Below are positions 1 through 5,386 of a stretch of 5,386 nucleotides of DNA, in pieces. The notes below the pieces were generated by a model that made no database searches, was not told where the DNA came from, and worked only from the letters and a program-made list of their open reading frames with translations. A program made the translations under genes and the position numbers. The stretch is from sequence record KJ997912.1, one strand, 5' to 3'. Position 1 is the first letter of the stretch; the number at the start of each line of letters is the position of its first letter. The DNA comes from Enterobacteria phage MED1.

Positions 1-51
1 GAGTTTTATCGCTTCCATGACGCAGAAGTTAACACTTTCGGATATTTCTGA
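1..51 (+). CDS. B: Internal scaffolding protein B, C-terminal 16 codons plus stop (continuation of 5075..5386 across the circular junction); stop TGA 49-51
   Basis: Translation of 1-51 in frame 1 gives [16 protein letters not shown], the conserved phiX174 B C-terminus; the stop overlaps the K start (TGATG at 49-53). Confidence 0.85.
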
Positions 52-136
52 TGAGTCGAAAAATTATCTTGATAAAGCAGGAATTACTACTGCTTGTTTA
101 CGAATTAAATCGAAGTGGACTGCTGGCGGAAAATGA
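1..136 (+). CDS. A: Replication initiator protein A (and A*), C-terminal segment; continuation across the circular junction of the ORF that runs off the window end at 5386 (position 1 is the third base of the junction codon CAG); stop TGA at 134-136
   Basis: Frame continuous with the 3981..5386 ORF when the ends are joined; translation ...[46 protein letters not shown] matches the phiX174 A C-terminus as I recall it; the stop overlaps the gene C start (ATGA at 133-136). Confidence 0.85.
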
Positions 137-393: not shown

Positions 394-848
394 GTCAAGT
401 TACTGAACAATCTGTACGTTTCCAAACCGCGCTGGCTTCTATCAAGCTGATTCAGGCTTCTGCTGTTCTGGATTTAACCGAAGATGATTTCGATTTTCTG
501 ACGAGTAATAAAGTTTGGATTGCTACTGACCGTTCTCGCGCTCGTCGCTGTGTAGAGGCTTGCGTCTATGGTACATTGGACTTTGTGGGATACCCTCGCT
601 TTCCTGCTCCTGTTGAGTTTATTGCTGCCGTCATTGCTTATTATGTTCATCCCGTCAACATTCAAACGGCCTGTCTCATCATGGAAGGCGCTGAGTTTAC
701 GGAAAACATTATTAATGGCGTCGAGCGTCCGGTTAAGGCCGCTGAGCTGTTCGCGTTTACCCTGCGTGTACGCGCAGGAAACACTGACGTTCTTACTGAC
801 GCAGAAGAGAACGTTCGCCAAAAATTACGCGCAGAAGGAGTGATGTAA
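390..848 (+). CDS. D: External scaffolding protein D (152 aa)
   Basis: ORF 390..848; translation [22 protein letters not shown]... is, as far as I can recall, identical to phiX174 D; start overlaps the C stop (ATGA), stop overlaps the J start (TAATG). Confidence 0.95.
   Translation: MSQVTEQSVRFQTALASIKLIQASAVLDLTEDDFDFLTSNKVWIATDRSRARRCVEACVYGTLDFVGYPRFPAPVEFIAAVIAYYVHPVNIQTACLIMEGAEFTENIINGVERPVKAAELFAFTLRVRAGNTDVLTDAEENVRQKLRAEGVM
568..843 (+). CDS. E: Lysis protein E (91 aa; MraY inhibitor), fully embedded in gene D in the +1 frame
   Basis: ATG 568 with AGAGG at 554-558 upstream; translation MVHWTLWDTLAFLLLLSLLLPSLLIMFIPSTFKRP... matches the phiX174 E N-terminal transmembrane domain including the LLLPSLL proline; the C-terminal half carries several substitutions versus the reference as recalled. 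Confidence 0.9.
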   Translation: MVHWTLWDTLAFLLLLSLLLPSLLIMFIPSTFKRPVSSWKALSLRKTLLMASSVRLRPLSCSRLPCVYAQETLTFLLTQKRTFAKNYAQKE

Positions 849-964
849 TGTCTAAAGGTAAAAAACGTTCTGGCGCTCGCCCCGGTCGTCCGCAGCCGTT
901 GCGAGGTACTAAAGGCAAGCGTAAAGGTGCTCGCCTCTGGTATGTAGGTGGTCAACAATTTTAA
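848..964 (+). CDS. J: DNA-binding / packaging protein J (38 aa, highly basic)
   Basis: ATG 848-850 to TAA 962-964; AGGAG at 836-840; translation MSKGKKRSGARPGRPQPLRGTKGKRKGARLWYVGGQQF matches phiX174 J. Confidence 0.9.
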   Translation: MSKGKKRSGARPGRPQPLRGTKGKRKGARLWYVGGQQF

Positions 965-969
965 TTATA

Positions 970-983
970 GGGGCTTCGGCCCC
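970..983 (+). terminator. J-F intergenic stem-loop GGGGC-UUCG-GCCCC (leaky terminator TJ / mRNA stabilising hairpin)
   Basis: Perfect 5-bp GC stem 970-974/979-983 closing a UUCG tetraloop 975-978; no following U-tract, consistent with an inefficient terminator; the gene F ribosome-binding site GAGG lies just downstream at 990-993. Confidence 0.55.
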
Positions 984-1000
984 TTACTTGAGGATAAATT

Positions 1001-2284
1001 ATGTCTAATGTTCAAACTGGCGCACAACGTATGCCGCATGACCTTTCCCATCTTGGCTTCCTTGCTGGTCAGATTGGTCGTCTTATTACCATTTCAACTA
1101 CTCCGGTTATCGCTGGCGACTCCTTCGAAATGGACGTCGTGGGCGCTCTTCGTCTTTCTCCATTGCGTCGTGGCCTTGCTATTGACTCTACTGTAGACAT
1201 TTTTACTTTTTATGTCCCTCATCGTCATGTTTATGGTGAGCAGTGGATTAAGTTTATGAAGGATGGCGTTAAAGCCGCTCCGCTCCCGACCGTTAACACT
1301 ACTGGTAATATTGACCATGCCGCTTTTCTTGGCACGATTAACCCTGATACCAATAAAATTCCTAAGCATTTGTTTCAGGGTTATCTGAATATCTATAACA
1401 ACTATTTTAAAGCGCCGTGGATGCCTGACCGTACCGAGGCTAACCCCAATCAGCTTAATGAAGATGATGCTCGCTATGGTTTCCGTTGCTGCCATCTTAA
1501 AAACATTTGGACTGCTCCGCTTCCTCCTGAGAGTGAGCTTTCTCGCCAAATGACGACTTCTACCACGTCCATTGACATTATGGGTCTGCAAGCTGCTTAT
1601 GCTAATTTGCATACTGACCAAGAACGTGATTACTTCATGCAGCGTTATCGTGATGTTATTTCTTCATTTGGAGGCAAAACTTCTTATGACGCTGACAACC
1701 GTCCTTTACTTGTCATGCGCTCTAATTTCTGGGCATCTGGCTATGATGTTGATGGAACTGACCAAACGTCGTTAGGCCAGTTTTCTGGTCGTGTTCAACA
1801 GACCTATAAGCATTCTGTGCCGCGTTTCTTTGTTCCTGAGCACGGCACTATGTTTACTCTCGCGCTGGTTCGTTTCCCGCCTACGGCGACTAAAGAGATT
1901 CAGTACTTGAATGCTAAAGGTGCTTTGACTTATACCGATATTGCTGGCGACCCTGCTTTGTATGGTAACTTGCCGCCGCGTGAAATTTCTATGAAGGATG
2001 TTTTTCGTTCTGGTGATTCTTCTAAGAAGTTTAAGATTGCCGAGGGTCAATGGTATCGTTATGCGCCTTCTTATGTTTCACCTGCATATCACCTGCTTGA
2101 AGGCTTCCCATTTATTCAGGAACCGCCTTCCGGTGATTTGCAAGAACGCGTACTTATTCGCCATCATGACTATGACCAGTGTTTCCAGTCCGTTCAGTTG
2201 TTGCAGTGGAATAGTCAGGTTAAATTTAATGTGACCGTTTATCGCAATCTGCCGACCACTCGCGATTCAATCATGACTTCGTGA
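1001..2284 (+). CDS. F: Major capsid protein F (427 aa)
   Basis: ORF 1001..2284 with GAGG 7 nt upstream; translation MSN.QTGA.RMPHDLSHLGFLAGQIGRLITISTTPVIAGDSFEMD... is near-identical to phiX174 F with scattered substitutions. Confidence 0.97.
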   Translation: MSNVQTGAQRMPHDLSHLGFLAGQIGRLITISTTPVIAGDSFEMDVVGALRLSPLRRGLAIDSTVDIFTFYVPHRHVYGEQWIKFMKDGVKAAPLPTVNTTGNIDHAAFLGTINPDTNKIPKHLFQGYLNIYNNYFKAPWMPDRTEANPNQLNEDDARYGFRCCHLKNIWTAPLPPESELSRQMTTSTTSIDIMGLQAAYANLHTDQERDYFMQRYRDVISSFGGKTSYDADNRPLLVMRSNFWASGYDVDGTDQTSLGQFSGRVQQTYKHSVPRFFVPEHGTMFTLALVRFPPTATKEIQYLNAKGALTYTDIAGDPALYGNLPPREISMKDVFRSGDSSKKFKIAEGQWYRYAPSYVSPAYHLLEGFPFIQEPPSGDLQERVLIRHHDYDQCFQSVQLLQWNSQVKFNVTVYRNLPTTRDSIMTS

Positions 2285-2315
2285 TAAAAGATTAAGTGTG
2301 AGGTTATAACGCCGA

Positions 2316-2343
2316 AGCGGTAAAAATTTTAATTTTTGCCGCT
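2316..2343 (+). terminator. F-G intergenic long hairpin (terminator TF; core of the PriA / n-prime primosome assembly site used for complementary-strand synthesis)
   Basis: AGCGGTAAAAATT (2316-2328) pairs with AATTTTTGCCGCT (2331-2343), with one G-U wobble; smaller GC hairpins flank it (CCG-AAG-CGG at 2312-2320, GCG-AAG-CGC at about 2359-2367). The F-G intergenic region of phiX174 is the known n-prime recognition site. Confidence 0.5.
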
Positions 2344-2394
2344 GAGGGGTTGACCAAGCGAAGCGCGGTAGGTTTTCTGCTTAGGAGTTTAATC

Positions 2395-2922
2395 ATGTTT
2401 CAGACTTTTATTTCTCGCCATAATTCAAACTTTTTTTCTGATAAGCTGGATCTCCGTTCTGTTACTCCAGCTTCTTCAGCACCTGTTTTACAGACACCTA
2501 AAGCTACATCGTCAACGTTATATTTTAATGAGTTGATGGTTAACGCTGGTAATGGTGGTTTTCTTCATTGCATTCAGATGGACACATCTGTCAACGCCGC
2601 TAATCAGGTTGTTTCTGTTGGTGCTGATATTGCTTTTGATGTCGACCCTAAATTTTTTGCCTGTTTGGTTCGCTTTGAGTCTTCTTCGGTTCCGACTACC
2701 CTCCCGACTGCTTATGATGTTTATCCTTTGGATGGTCGCCATGATGGTGGTTATTATACTGTTAAGGATTGCGTGACTATTGACGTTCTTCCCCGTACGC
2801 CGGGCAATAATGTTTATGTTGGTTTCATGGTTTGGTCTAACTTTACCGGTACTAAATGCCGCGGATTGGTTTCGCTGAATCAGGTTATTAAAGAGATTAT
2901 TTGTCTCCAGCCACTTAAGTGA
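2395..2922 (+). CDS. G: Major spike protein G (175 aa)
   Basis: ATG 2395 with AGGAG at 2383-2387; the ORF track's 2350 start is an in-frame upstream extension without an RBS; translation [18 protein letters not shown]... matches phiX174 G with a few substitutions. Confidence 0.95.
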
Positions 2923-2930
2923 GGTGATTT

Positions 2931-3917
2931 ATGTTTGGTGCTATTGCTGGCGGTATTGCTTCCGCTCTTGCTGGCGGCGCCATGTCTAAATTGTTTGGAG
3001 GCGGTCAAAAAGCCGCCTCCGGTGGCATTCAAGGTGATGTGCTTGCTACCGATAACAATACTGTAGGCATGGGTGACGCTGGTATTAAATCTGCCATTCA
3101 AGGCTCTAATGTTCCTAACCCTGATGAGGCCGCCCCTAATTTTGTTTCTGGTGCTATGGCTAAAGCTGGTAAAGGGCTTCTTGAAGGTACGTTGCAGGCT
3201 GGCACTTCTGCCGTTTCTGATAAGTTTCTTGATTTGGTTGGACTTGGTGGCAAGTCTGCCGCTGATAAAGGAAAGGATACTCGTGATTATCTTGCTGCTG
3301 CATTTCCTGAGCTTAACGCTTGGGAGCGTGCTGGTGCTGGTGCTTCCTCTGCTGGTATGGTTGACGCCGGATTTGAGAATCAAAAAGAGCTTACTAAAAT
3401 GCAACTGGACAATCAGAAAGAGATTGCCGAGATGCAAAATGAAACTCAAAAGGAGATTGCTGGCATTCAGTCGGCGACTTCCCGTCAGAATACGAAAGAC
3501 CAAGTATATGCACAAAATGAGATGCTTGCTTATCAACAAAAGGAGTCTACTGCTCGCGTTGCGTCTATTATGGAAAACACCAATCTTTCCAAGCAACAGC
3601 AGGTTTCTGAGATTATGCGCCAGATGCTTATACAGGCTCAAACGGCTGGCCAGTATTTTACTAACGACCAAATCAAAGAGATGACTCGCAAGGTTAGCGC
3701 TGAAGTTGACTTGGTTCATCAACAGACGCAGAATCAGCGGTATGGTTCTTCTCATATTGGTGCTACTGCTAAGGATATTTCTAATGTCGTCACTGATGCT
3801 GCTTCTGGTGTGGTTGATATTTTTCATGGTATTGATAAAGCTGTTGCCGACACTTGGAACAATTTCTGGAAAGACGGTAAAGCTGATGGCATTGGCTCTA
3901 ATTTGTCTAGGAAGTAA
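2931..3917 (+). CDS. H: Minor spike / DNA pilot protein H (328 aa)
   Basis: ORF 2931..3917; RBS GAGGTGA at 2921-2927 overlaps the G stop; Gly-rich N-terminus ([25 protein letters not shown]) and Q/E/K-rich central coiled-coil region typical of phiX174 H. Confidence 0.95.
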
Positions 3918-3980: not shown

Positions 3981-5386
3981 ATGGTTCGTTCGTATTACCC
4001 TTCTGAATGTCACGCTGATTATTTTGACTTTGAGCGTATCGAGGCTCTTAAACCTGCTATCGAGGCCTGTGGCATTTCTACTCTTTCCCAATCTCCGATG
4101 CTTGCCTTCCATAAGCAGATGGATAACCGCATCAAGCTCCTTGAAGAGATTTTGTCATTTCGTATGCAGGGCGTTGAGTTCGATAATGGTGATATGTATG
4201 TCGACGGTCATAAGGCTGCTTCTGATGTTCGTGATGAGTTTGTGTCTGTTACTGAAAAGTTAATGGATGAATTGGCACAATGTTACAACGTGCTCCCCCA
4301 ACTTGATATTAATAACACTATAGACCACCGCCCCGAAGGGGACGAAAAATGGTTTTTAGAGAACGAGAAGACGGTTACGCAGTTTTGCCGTAAGCTGGCT
4401 GCTGAACGCCCTCTTAAGGATATTCGAGATGAGTATAATTACCCCAAAAAGAAAGGTATTAAGGATGAGTGTTCAAGATTGTTGGAGGCCTCCACTATGA
4501 AATCGCGTAGAGGCTTTACTATTCAACGTTTGATGAATGCAATGCGTCAGGCTCACGCTGATGGCTGGTTTATCGTTTTTGACACTCTTACGCTGGCTGA
4601 TGACCGCTTAGAGGCGTTTTATGATAATCCCAATGCTTTGCGTGACTATTTTCGTGATATTGGTCGTATGGTTCTTGCTGCCGAGGGTCGTAAAGCTAAT
4701 GACTCACACGCCGACTGCTATCAGTATTTTTGTGTGCCTGAGTATGGTTCAGCTAATGGCCGTCTTCATTTCCATGCGGTGCATTTTATGCGGACACTTC
4801 CTACAGGTAGCGTTGACCCTAATTTTGGTCGTCGGGTACGCAATCGCCGCCAGTTAAATAGCTTGCAAAACACGTGGCCTTATGGTTACAGTATGCCTAT
4901 CGCAGTTCGCTACACGCAGGACGCTTTTTCACGTTCTGGATGGTTGTGGCCTGTTGATGCTAAAGGTGAGCCGCTTAAAGCTACCAGTTACATGGCTGTT
5001 GGCTTCTATGTGGCTAAATACGTTAACAAAAAGTCAGATATGGACCTTGCCGCTAAAGGTCTAGGAGCTAAAGAATGGAACAACTCACTAAAAACCAAGC
5101 TGTCGCTACTTCCCAAGAAATTATTCAGAATCCGAATGAGCCGCAACTTCGGGATGAAAATGCTCACAATGACCAACCTGTCAATGGAATGCTTAATCCA
5201 GCTTACCAAGCTGGGTTACGACGCGACGCCGTTCAACCAGATATTGAAGCAGAACGCAAAAAGAGAGATGAGATTGAGGCTGGCAAAAGTTACTGTAGCC
5301 GACGTTTTGGCGGCGCAACCTGTGACGACAAATCTGCTCAAATTTATGCGCGCTTCGATAAAAATGATTGGCGTGTCCAACCTGCA
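3981..5386 (+). CDS. A: Replication initiator protein A (HUH rolling-circle endonuclease; 513 aa in total), N-terminal about 468 codons; the ORF runs off the window end and finishes at 1..136
   Basis: ATG 3981 preceded by GGAGG; no in-frame stop to position 5386; HUH motif HFHAVH encoded at 4767-4784; catalytic tyrosine pair in VGFYVAKYVNKK (Tyr codons 5007-5009 and 5019-5021, residues 343 and 347). Confidence 0.95.
   Translation, partial: MVRSYYPSECHADYFDFERIEALKPAIEACGISTLSQSPMLAFHKQMDNRIKLLEEILSFRMQGVEFDNGDMYVDGHKAASDVRDEFVSVTEKLMDELAQCYNVLPQLDINNTIDHRPEGDEKWFLENEKTVTQFCRKLAAERPLKDIRDEYNYPKKKGIKDECSRLLEASTMKSRRGFTIQRLMNAMRQAHADGWFIVFDTLTLADDRLEAFYDNPNALRDYFRDIGRMVLAAEGRKANDSHADCYQYFCVPEYGSANGRLHFHAVHFMRTLPTGSVDPNFGRRVRNRRQLNSLQNTWPYGYSMPIAVRYTQDAFSRSGWLWPVDAKGEPLKATSYMAVGFYVAKYVNKKSDMDLAAKGLGAKEWNNSLKTKLSLLPKKLFRIRMSRNFGMKMLTMTNLSMECLIQLTKLGYDATPFNQILKQNAKREMRLRLAKVTVADVLAAQPVTTNLLKFMRASIKMIGVSNL
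4299..4328 (+). other. Viral-strand origin of replication (30-nt A-protein recognition sequence); nick site between G4305 and A4306
   Basis: CAACTTGATATTAATAACACTATAGACCAC at 4299-4328 is the canonical phiX174 ori, located inside gene A at the same coordinates as in the reference. Confidence 0.85.
4497..5386 (+). CDS. A*: A* protein (341 aa in total): internal in-frame translation initiation within gene A; continues to 1..136
   Basis: In-frame ATG at 4497 preceded by GGAGG at 4484-4488 (8-nt spacing); corresponds to the known A* start of phiX174 (MKSRRGF...). Confidence 0.75.
   Translation, partial: MKSRRGFTIQRLMNAMRQAHADGWFIVFDTLTLADDRLEAFYDNPNALRDYFRDIGRMVLAAEGRKANDSHADCYQYFCVPEYGSANGRLHFHAVHFMRTLPTGSVDPNFGRRVRNRRQLNSLQNTWPYGYSMPIAVRYTQDAFSRSGWLWPVDAKGEPLKATSYMAVGFYVAKYVNKKSDMDLAAKGLGAKEWNNSLKTKLSLLPKKLFRIRMSRNFGMKMLTMTNLSMECLIQLTKLGYDATPFNQILKQNAKREMRLRLAKVTVADVLAAQPVTTNLLKFMRASIKMIGVSNL
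4850..4900 (+). promoter_or_regulatory. Approximate location of promoter pB (inside gene A, upstream of B)
   Basis: Weak sigma70-like elements only (TTGCAA at 4863-4868, then TTACAG/TACAGT around 4886-4892); placed mainly from knowledge that pB lies about 190 nt upstream of B in phiX174. Exact hexamers uncertain. Confidence 0.3.
5075..5386 (+). CDS. B: Internal scaffolding protein B (120 aa in total), embedded in gene A in a different frame; continues at 1..51
   Basis: ATG 5075 with AGGAG at 5063-5067; translation MEQLTKNQAVATSQE... with the conserved C-terminus after the wrap; the N-terminal third carries several substitutions versus the reference as recalled. Confidence 0.9.
   Translation, partial: MEQLTKNQAVATSQEIIQNPNEPQLRDENAHNDQPVNGMLNPAYQAGLRRDAVQPDIEAERKKRDEIEAGKSYCSRRFGGATCDDKSAQIYARFDKNDWRVQPA

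Follow-up and report, generated by a model that had tools for sequence, protein, structure and literature searches.

Does a junction at which the stop codon of one gene and the start codon of the next share bases couple the translation of the two genes, or is it mostly a by-product of compaction? The question is raised by phiX174 and its relatives, phiX174 being the genome on which the concept of overlapping genes was founded (Barrell 1976 and Sanger 1977, both cited in PMC8227390), Tessman 1980 being credited with the finding of gene K by comparative sequence analysis. Exactly the four start/stop overlaps treated here have been named by Wright et al. 2020 (10.1101/2020.06.10.143693). The four junctions and the coding compression are already known and belong to the textbooks, and since they have been described for decades, their presence in a further genome is an ordinary finding. 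The original prediction, which had been made from the letters of the DNA, correctly recognised an extreme coding compression, i.e. the classic phiX174 result with the same four overlaps as listed by Wright et al., and took the junctions to imply translational coupling in addition.

Identity and gene organization of the genome

The window, i.e. the whole stretch of 5386 nt that was analysed (Enterobacteria phage MED1, KJ997912.1), is a complete phiX174-like (Sinsheimervirus) genome that follows the standard phiX174 numbering. When it was compared with 50,697 phage records by megablast, 161 full-length matches of 95-99% identity were returned, all of them from Bullavirinae of the genus Sinsheimervirus, the best full-length matches being Salmonella phage PJNS001 (96.6%), ID34 and NC1 (both 96.5%) and phiX174 (96.1%). 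The phiX174-clade genomes show 96.1-96.6% identity to the window over 100% of the length. The alignments to phiX174 isolate AP100, ID34 and PJNS001 are colinear and free of insertions and deletions, with 210, 191 and 184 substitutions, respectively, which makes PJNS001 the nearest database genome. Among nine phiX-like genomes the pairwise differences amount to 61-251 sites, and the distances of the window lie inside this range of natural isolates. Within positions 1-200 there is no difference at all between the window and phiX174 AP100, and none of the substitutions alters any junction.

When the sequence is read as a circle, the 11 canonical genes are found complete and in their canonical order and frames, each with an ATG start, a stop codon and no internal stops, and their coordinates are the same in the annotated records of phiX174, ID34, NC1 and others. 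The genes described in the following all lie on the plus strand. Gene A (3981-5386 continued at 1-136) is an open frame of 513 aa ending in ...WTAGGK at the stop codon TGA 134-136, which is shared by the open frame of gene A* (4497-136). Gene B codes for the internal scaffolding protein and runs as an open frame of 120 aa across the numbering origin (5075-5386 continued at 1-51) to its stop codon TGA 49-51; its 5′ part (5075-5386) is nested in A in another frame, and its Shine-Dalgarno (SD) sequence AGGAG has a pairing energy of -6.5 kcal/mol. Downstream follow gene K (51-221), coding for a non-essential accessory protein of 56 aa which matches PF12283 over its full length (E = 3e-41), and gene C (133-393), coding for the 86-aa DNA maturation/packaging switch (PF12025, E = 1e-50). 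Gene D (390-848) encodes the external scaffolding protein (Pfam gpD, E = 3e-98) and harbors the lysis gene E (568-843; Microvir_lysis, E = 6e-22) in another frame, while gene J (848-964) encodes a DNA-binding protein of 38 aa with a Pfam match and is preceded by a strong SD, AAGGAG, of -8.3 kcal/mol. The Pfam families of the K, C, D, E and J proteins (PF12283, PF12025, PF02925, PF04517 and PF04726) all score above the curated cut-offs, and an Rfam scan of the whole window returned no family. Length, the coordinates of the 11 genes and the four junction strings all equal those of the phiX174 reference map, and K, D and J do not differ in protein sequence from phiX174 AP100. The region is, with practical certainty, the phiX174-like gene-dense quarter with its canonical A/A*-B-K-C-D/E-J junctions.

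The identity to database sequences differs between segments, with 96.7% for F, 96.8% for G-H and 97.9% for A; the B-K-C segment reaches 99.6% to PJNS001 and is the sole one at or above 99%. With respect to eight natural genomes 43 sites are private to the window, mostly in F, G and H. The overall divergence, besides lying in the natural range, agrees with the 93.0-98.8% given for phiX174-like genomes generated by a language model (designed genomes of this kind are described in 10.1101/2025.09.12.675911), and by these figures the window may be a natural isolate or a design. In the spike protein G (window positions 2450-2537) the amino-acid changes relative to phiX174 are clustered, namely V19D, T21 (two codon positions), D45N, S46 (all three codon positions) and T48M, and this cluster probably represents a host-range surface patch. 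The single GATC of the window, at position 2449, stems from the private, non-synonymous change V19D in G. phiX174 contains none and the natural relatives contain zero to two, where about 20 would be expected from base composition; GATC avoidance is kept in the window.

The substitutions relative to phiX174 in the nested genes show the classic asymmetry of overprinted genes. In nested B (5075-5386) 10 substitutions are non-synonymous and two synonymous in B, 10 of the 12 being synonymous in A, and in nested E (568-843) eight are non-synonymous and three synonymous in E, all of them being synonymous in D.

Structure and conservation of the four junctions

At the B/K junction, TGATG at 49-53, the stop codon of B (49-51) and the start codon of K (51-53) overlap by one base (-1), and the shared base 51 is read in the A frame as well. 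The A/C junction, ATGA at 133-136, is a -4 overlap consisting of the C start codon (133-135) and the A/A* stop codon (134-136), through which K is read in the remaining frame. The C/D junction, ATGA at 390-393, is likewise a -4 overlap, with the D start codon at 390-392 and the C stop codon at 391-393. At the D/J junction the segment TGATGTAATG (841-850) comprises the E stop codon (841-843), the last D codon ATG (843-845), the D stop codon TAA (846-848) and the J start codon (848-850), the -1 overlap being formed by TAATG at 846-850. Four signals are thereby placed within 10 nt, and ribosomes ending E halt 4 nt upstream of the J AUG.

The B-K (-1), A-C (-4), C-D (-4) and D-J (-1) overlaps are all present in the window, and every coordinate that had been given for the four motifs agrees with the sequence. 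Translation of the three forward frames from positions 40, 41 and 42 yields GYF and a stop followed by MRKFDLSL (end of B and start of C), ...WTAGGK and a stop (end of A), and MSRK...VKN and a stop (K). The statement that the stretch from 49 to 136 is read in all three forward frames holds for five bases, namely 51 (A, B and K) and 133-136 (A, K and C), the rest of the stretch being read in two frames.

All four junction strings are invariant across the nine phiX-like genomes. Polymorphism among these genomes affects 10.5% of the single-coded sites (459/4355) and 4.9% of the double-coded sites, and it is particularly low around the first two junctions, with five of 221 sites in positions 1-221 (Fisher p = 6e-6 against the single-coded sites) and one of 86 in positions 51-136 (p = 0.002). 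Within the segment 841-850 the phage NC56 carries TGACG.

Start/stop-overlap motifs as such are frequent. The plus strand contains 74 of them, 11 of which are flanked on either side by 30 or more open codons; four are real gene junctions, and the remaining open-frame sites are mostly ATGs inside F, G and A, the A* start among them, which overlap an out-of-frame stop codon. ATGA is not enriched, with 61 sites observed versus 49 expected. TGATG occurs 26 times versus 13.0 ± 3.4 in dinucleotide-preserving shuffles, none of 200 shuffles reaching 26; its sites are spread genome-wide, 21 of the 26 lie on the plus strand, and the excess is probably a codon-pair effect (...CTG ATG..., ...GAT GAT G...). 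Motif counts were accordingly rejected as evidence for junctions, the excess of TGATG being unrelated to them and most open-frame sites being no junctions. The four junctions are set apart by homology and conservation, not by the motif alone.

A second TGATG is found at 219-223, where a new ATG (221-223) begins on the last base of the K stop codon TGA (219-221). The motif is produced by C222T, a change which is synonymous in C (D30) and common to the window and PJNS001 only. The reading frame behind it (221-331, 36 aa) has no SD (+0.3 kcal/mol), a poorly accessible ribosome site and no Pfam family; in seven other relatives this frame is open too, with ACG in place of ATG. The motif probably resembles the B/K junction by chance. 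As one change that is synonymous in C suffices to create it, junctions of coupled appearance easily arise by chance.

Gene K and its start codon

Gene K is entirely contained in A (to 136) and C (from 133) and is read in a frame different from theirs, and its amino-acid sequence in the window is identical to that of phiX174 K. Homologues are found in three genera, i.e. in the phiX-, G4- and alpha3-like phages. All 80 matches of a large protein search with K carry PF12283, most of them being read-length phiX174 fragments which presumably derive from sequencing spike-in. Three of the four polymorphisms inside K are synonymous in K, and between genera the A and K frames are conserved to a nearly equal extent (22/29 versus 20/28 and 15/29 versus 12/28), the numbers being small in both cases. 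All 11 phiX174 proteins including K have been detected by mass spectrometry (PMC8125068). That the motifs arose by chance and that K is no real gene in the variant of the window might be argued from the commonness of start/stop-overlap motifs, but given the full-length PF12283 match, the identity to phiX174 K, the detection of the phiX174 protein and its conservation in three genera, the probability of this is negligible.

Overprinted where A ends and C begins, K is accessory and has a restricted distribution. In the complete mutagenesis of phiX174 the K nonsense variants were neutral, as the single exception to nonsense lethality, and no K mutation lowered fitness; furthermore, a viable language-model-generated phage lacks K. 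With regard to the start codon ATG 51-53, A51 is fixed both as the last base of the TGA of B and as the middle base of an Asp codon of A, and G53 is the first base of a Glu codon of A, T52 alone being free (GAT or GAC). This base is T in all four lineages, for which a chance probability of about 0.075 follows from the Asp codon usage in A (39-63% GAT). As only T52 is free, the conservation of the B/K junction is largely owed to A and B and not to K.

Strength and accessibility of the ribosome-binding sites

In order to compare the starts of the 11 genes, the SD/anti-SD pairing was computed over the 20 nt upstream of each of them. The weakest SDs are those of K (-3.3 kcal/mol), D (-3.7 kcal/mol) and C (-4.8 kcal/mol), at background percentiles 31, 24 and 16, respectively, and the pairing in C leaves just 2 nt before the AUG. 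J (-8.3 kcal/mol), H, A, A*, G, B and F clearly exceed the background. All three genes at the bottom of the SD ranking of 11 belong to the four that start at a junction (hypergeometric 4/165 = 0.024).

The predicted opening energies of the ribosome sites are 8.9 kcal/mol for K (27th percentile) and 10.8 kcal/mol for C (51st percentile) versus a background of 10.9 ± 3.5 kcal/mol, and 4.1 kcal/mol for D (2nd percentile), which is predicted to be the most open site in the genome. A small hairpin can pair in the region of the K AUG in the minimum-energy fold, and no inhibitory structure over the ribosome site of K or C is indicated by the predicted opening energies. With no masking structure predicted at these two sites, coupling, if any, would more likely act by re-initiation than by unfolding.

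The SD strength was furthermore related to the stop-start spacing at 24 junctions from six Bullavirinae genomes, which effectively amount to about three to four independent evolutionary contrasts. The mean SD is -5.0 kcal/mol at the 16 junctions spaced at most +1 nt versus -7.5 kcal/mol at the eight junctions spaced +5 to +233 nt (Mann-Whitney p = 0.0014; Spearman rho = -0.68 over all 24). An exception is J of phiX174, which has a strong SD despite its -1 overlap.

Comparison with other Bullavirinae and with coupled gene pairs

The phiX-, G4- and alpha3-like phages all have the same 15-mer, GGATATTTCTGATGA, at the B/K junction, and it recurs in a divergent contig (L091). The other junctions differ between the genera. 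In the G4-like phages (Gequatrovirus), whose K and C are homologous to those of the phiX-like phages, the A/C junction is an ATGA as in the window, whereas C/D (+1) and D/J (+5 or +42) are not overlapped, as compared with -4 and -1 in the phiX-like phages; in NC13 the D/J spacing of +42 is accompanied by AAGGAG. In the alpha3-like phages (Alphatrevirus) K and C are homologous as well, but the ATGA at A/C is absent and the start of C, behind AGGAG, lies 26 nt beyond the A stop codon. Their C/D spacing is +26 to +233, with AAGGAG or GGAGG in front of D (+26 and AAGGAG in alpha3 itself), and their D/J spacing is +1 with a weak SD. In alpha3 (L006, 2240-2272) and two further genomes of this kind (L012 and L013) the A stop codon at the homologous place reads GTGA, and an uninterrupted reading frame connects this GTG with the annotated ATG of C 30 nt downstream. 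In these phages C might conceivably exist in an N-terminally extended form that is coupled to A.

A scan of viral contigs for GGATATTTCTGATGA returned at least 120 stretches, nearly all of them chance matches in large unrelated contigs and 11 microvirus-like. The divergent contig L091 (IMGVR_UViG_3300030243_000341, minus strand, 667-3778) is Bullavirinae-like with a GC content of 54% and contains H, A, B, D and J as confirmed by Pfam. Its GGATATTTCTGATGA at the B stop codon opens a reading frame of 65 aa which ends 33 nt inside D; H/A and D/J overlap by ATGA, and G/H by 1 nt. No recognisable C was found between the A stop codon and D, nor any Pfam match to K or C, and a comparison of the 65-aa frame with the C and K profiles by hhalign was not significant (E = 0.13 and 0.42). 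A search of the viral contigs for relatives via the A protein returned only the contig itself. It is tempting, though unlikely to be right, to regard the TGATG at the B stop codon as an ancient re-initiation site which might have launched different overprinted genes in different Bullavirinae lineages (K and, in place of a recognisable C, the 65-aa frame). Taken with the relation of SD strength to stop-start spacing, this would turn the junction spacing into an evolvable dial of expression ratios and make it more than a result of packing.

Native ATGA and TGATG pairs in E. coli are coupled by termination-reinitiation, which is usually SD-assisted (Huber et al. 2019, PMC6728339). The termination-reinitiation pairs of E. 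coli and archaea (PMC6728339, PMC12548453) are co-directional, overlap by -4 or -1 and have a variable SD inside the upstream gene, as is the case in the window. In contrast to ordinary operon pairs, however, a third frame, that of K, elongates through the junction at 133-136, and any coupling in the window is a prediction from the sequence. Small phage genomes in which ribosomes ending an upstream gene feed a weakly starting one are also described in PMC12548453, as far as its account of MS2 (coat to lysis) and f1 (V/VII/IX/VIII) goes. According to the same account the MS2 lysis gene combines a spacing of -50 with a defined inhibitory hairpin, whereas nothing of the sort is indicated at K or C.

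Promoters inside the K-C region

The promoter pD is located inside C on the plus strand (320-349) and consists of TTGACA (320-325) and TATTAT (344-349) separated by 18 nt, with 11 of 12 matches to the consensus. From its position we infer a transcription start at about 356-358, and the pD transcripts would thus lack the C start codon. On transcripts of this kind D cannot be coupled to C. In the complete mutagenesis of phiX174, synonymous mutations at V63, D64 and L71-S75 of C were detrimental, and these positions coincide with pD, which raises transcription 2-2.5-fold. The polycistronic A/A*-B-K-C-D-J mRNAs come from the promoters pA and pB.

The -10 hexamer of pD reads TATTAT in the window and TACTAT in all eight natural relatives (site 346; also site 339). 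The change C346T is private to the window, synonymous in C and brings the hexamer nearer to the consensus TATAAT; it might raise the transcription of D-J-F-G-H. A further stretch of 40 nt in the K/C overlap, AAGCTCTTACTTTGCGACCTTTCGCCATCAACTAACGATT at 166-205, has been described by Logel and Jaschke as a possible sigma-70 promoter near btss49 and is unchanged in the window. If this promoter is active, its transcripts would begin after the start codons of both K and C.

In the phiX174 isolate AP100 (L001, EF380009) a stop codon is present at codon 79 of C (367-369), and C is annotated as 133-369. C hence ends 21 nt upstream of the D ATG in this isolate and the C/D overlap ATGA is not used as a stop, which suggests that the overlap is dispensable for D.

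Possible translational coupling and alternative explanations

The decompressed phiX174, from which the overlaps have been removed, is viable but less fit. Its proteins B and C are reduced (C about 6-fold) and A* and E are increased, D, J and K being absent from the significantly changed proteins. The drop of C has been ascribed by the authors of that study to the lost A/C junction together with an altered leader, and because the design altered the C leader as well, the drop is confounded. K was measured through a single peptide and not found to be significantly changed; the unchanged level argues against a strict dependence of K on the B stop codon. No ribosome-profiling data set for phiX174 was found in the literature searched.

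These data are compatible with a split mechanism, for and against which we see about equal weight, and in which re-initiation would feed K and C while D and J would start mostly independently. A ribosome ending B, or A/A*, would stand on the next AUG and re-initiate there at low efficiency. By this route the weak-SD genes K (from B) and C (from A/A*) would receive much of their translation, and the output of C would be tied to that of its partner, protein A. Such a ribosome link between C and A/A* would be biologically sensible, since C acts on the A-origin complex. D would start mainly by itself at its open, A-rich ribosome site, largely on pD transcripts unable to translate C, and J would likewise start mainly by itself via the strong AAGGAG, so that the overlaps of D and J would be mostly a by-product of compaction. 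The predicted implication of translational coupling at the junctions in general hence exceeds the evidence: for K and C it is favoured by the weak SDs and the approximately 6-fold drop of C, whereas the open D site, pD, the strong SD of J, the neutral K nonsense mutants and the lack of a significant change of D, J and K on decompression speak against it as a general or required feature. Coupling appears plausible for K and C, the chances standing near one half, and doubtful for D and J.

Compaction could also be the whole explanation, with every gene starting de novo at its own ribosome site and no functional coupling at any junction. Several of the observations described above fit this view, i.e. 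the viability of the fully decompressed phage with D, J and K levels not significantly altered, the lack of some overlaps in G4- and alpha3-like phages, the K start codon set largely by codons of A and B, the look-alike TGATG at 219-223 due to a single C-synonymous change, the absence of a gene junction at seven of the 11 motif sites flanked by open frames, and the C stop codon of AP100 21 nt before the D ATG. It is a possibility to be taken seriously, yet it falls short of being probable, as the SD pairing of K, C and D is at background, the SD strengthens where the junctions of the relatives open up, protein C is about 6-fold lower once its junction is removed, and gene pairs of this type are usually coupled in E. 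coli. At the opposite extreme, each of the four junctions, those from C to D and from D to J too, might act as a termination-reinitiation relay, the relays setting the protein ratios. The same motifs occur at all four sites, the SD of D is weak and the E stop codon also lies 4 nt before the J start, which would agree with such relays. However, no phage protein is more abundant than D, whereas C is a minor one, and re-initiation from C therefore cannot supply D. Since, in addition, pD starts transcripts inside C, the D site is the most accessible in the genome, the SD of J is strong and neither D nor J is significantly changed on decompression, uniform coupling is unlikely.

Lastly, coupling might act by RNA unfolding, upstream ribosomes melting a structure which hides the K and C sites so that new ribosomes can bind. 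The mechanism is a general one (reviewed in PMC12548453), and in the minimum-energy fold the region of the K AUG can form a small hairpin. It is nevertheless very improbable here, as the predicted opening energies of K and C are ordinary (8.9 and 10.8 versus 10.9 ± 3.5 kcal/mol) and a terminating ribosome physically covers a start site at -1 or -4 (PMC12548453).

Implications for phiX174-like phages

The variant represented by the window keeps the whole compressed architecture, with unchanged K, D and J proteins. The comparative SD pattern offers a concrete and cheap hypothesis for genome refactoring, namely that K and C are fed by ribosomes terminating on B and A, which would bear on the loss of protein C after decompression.
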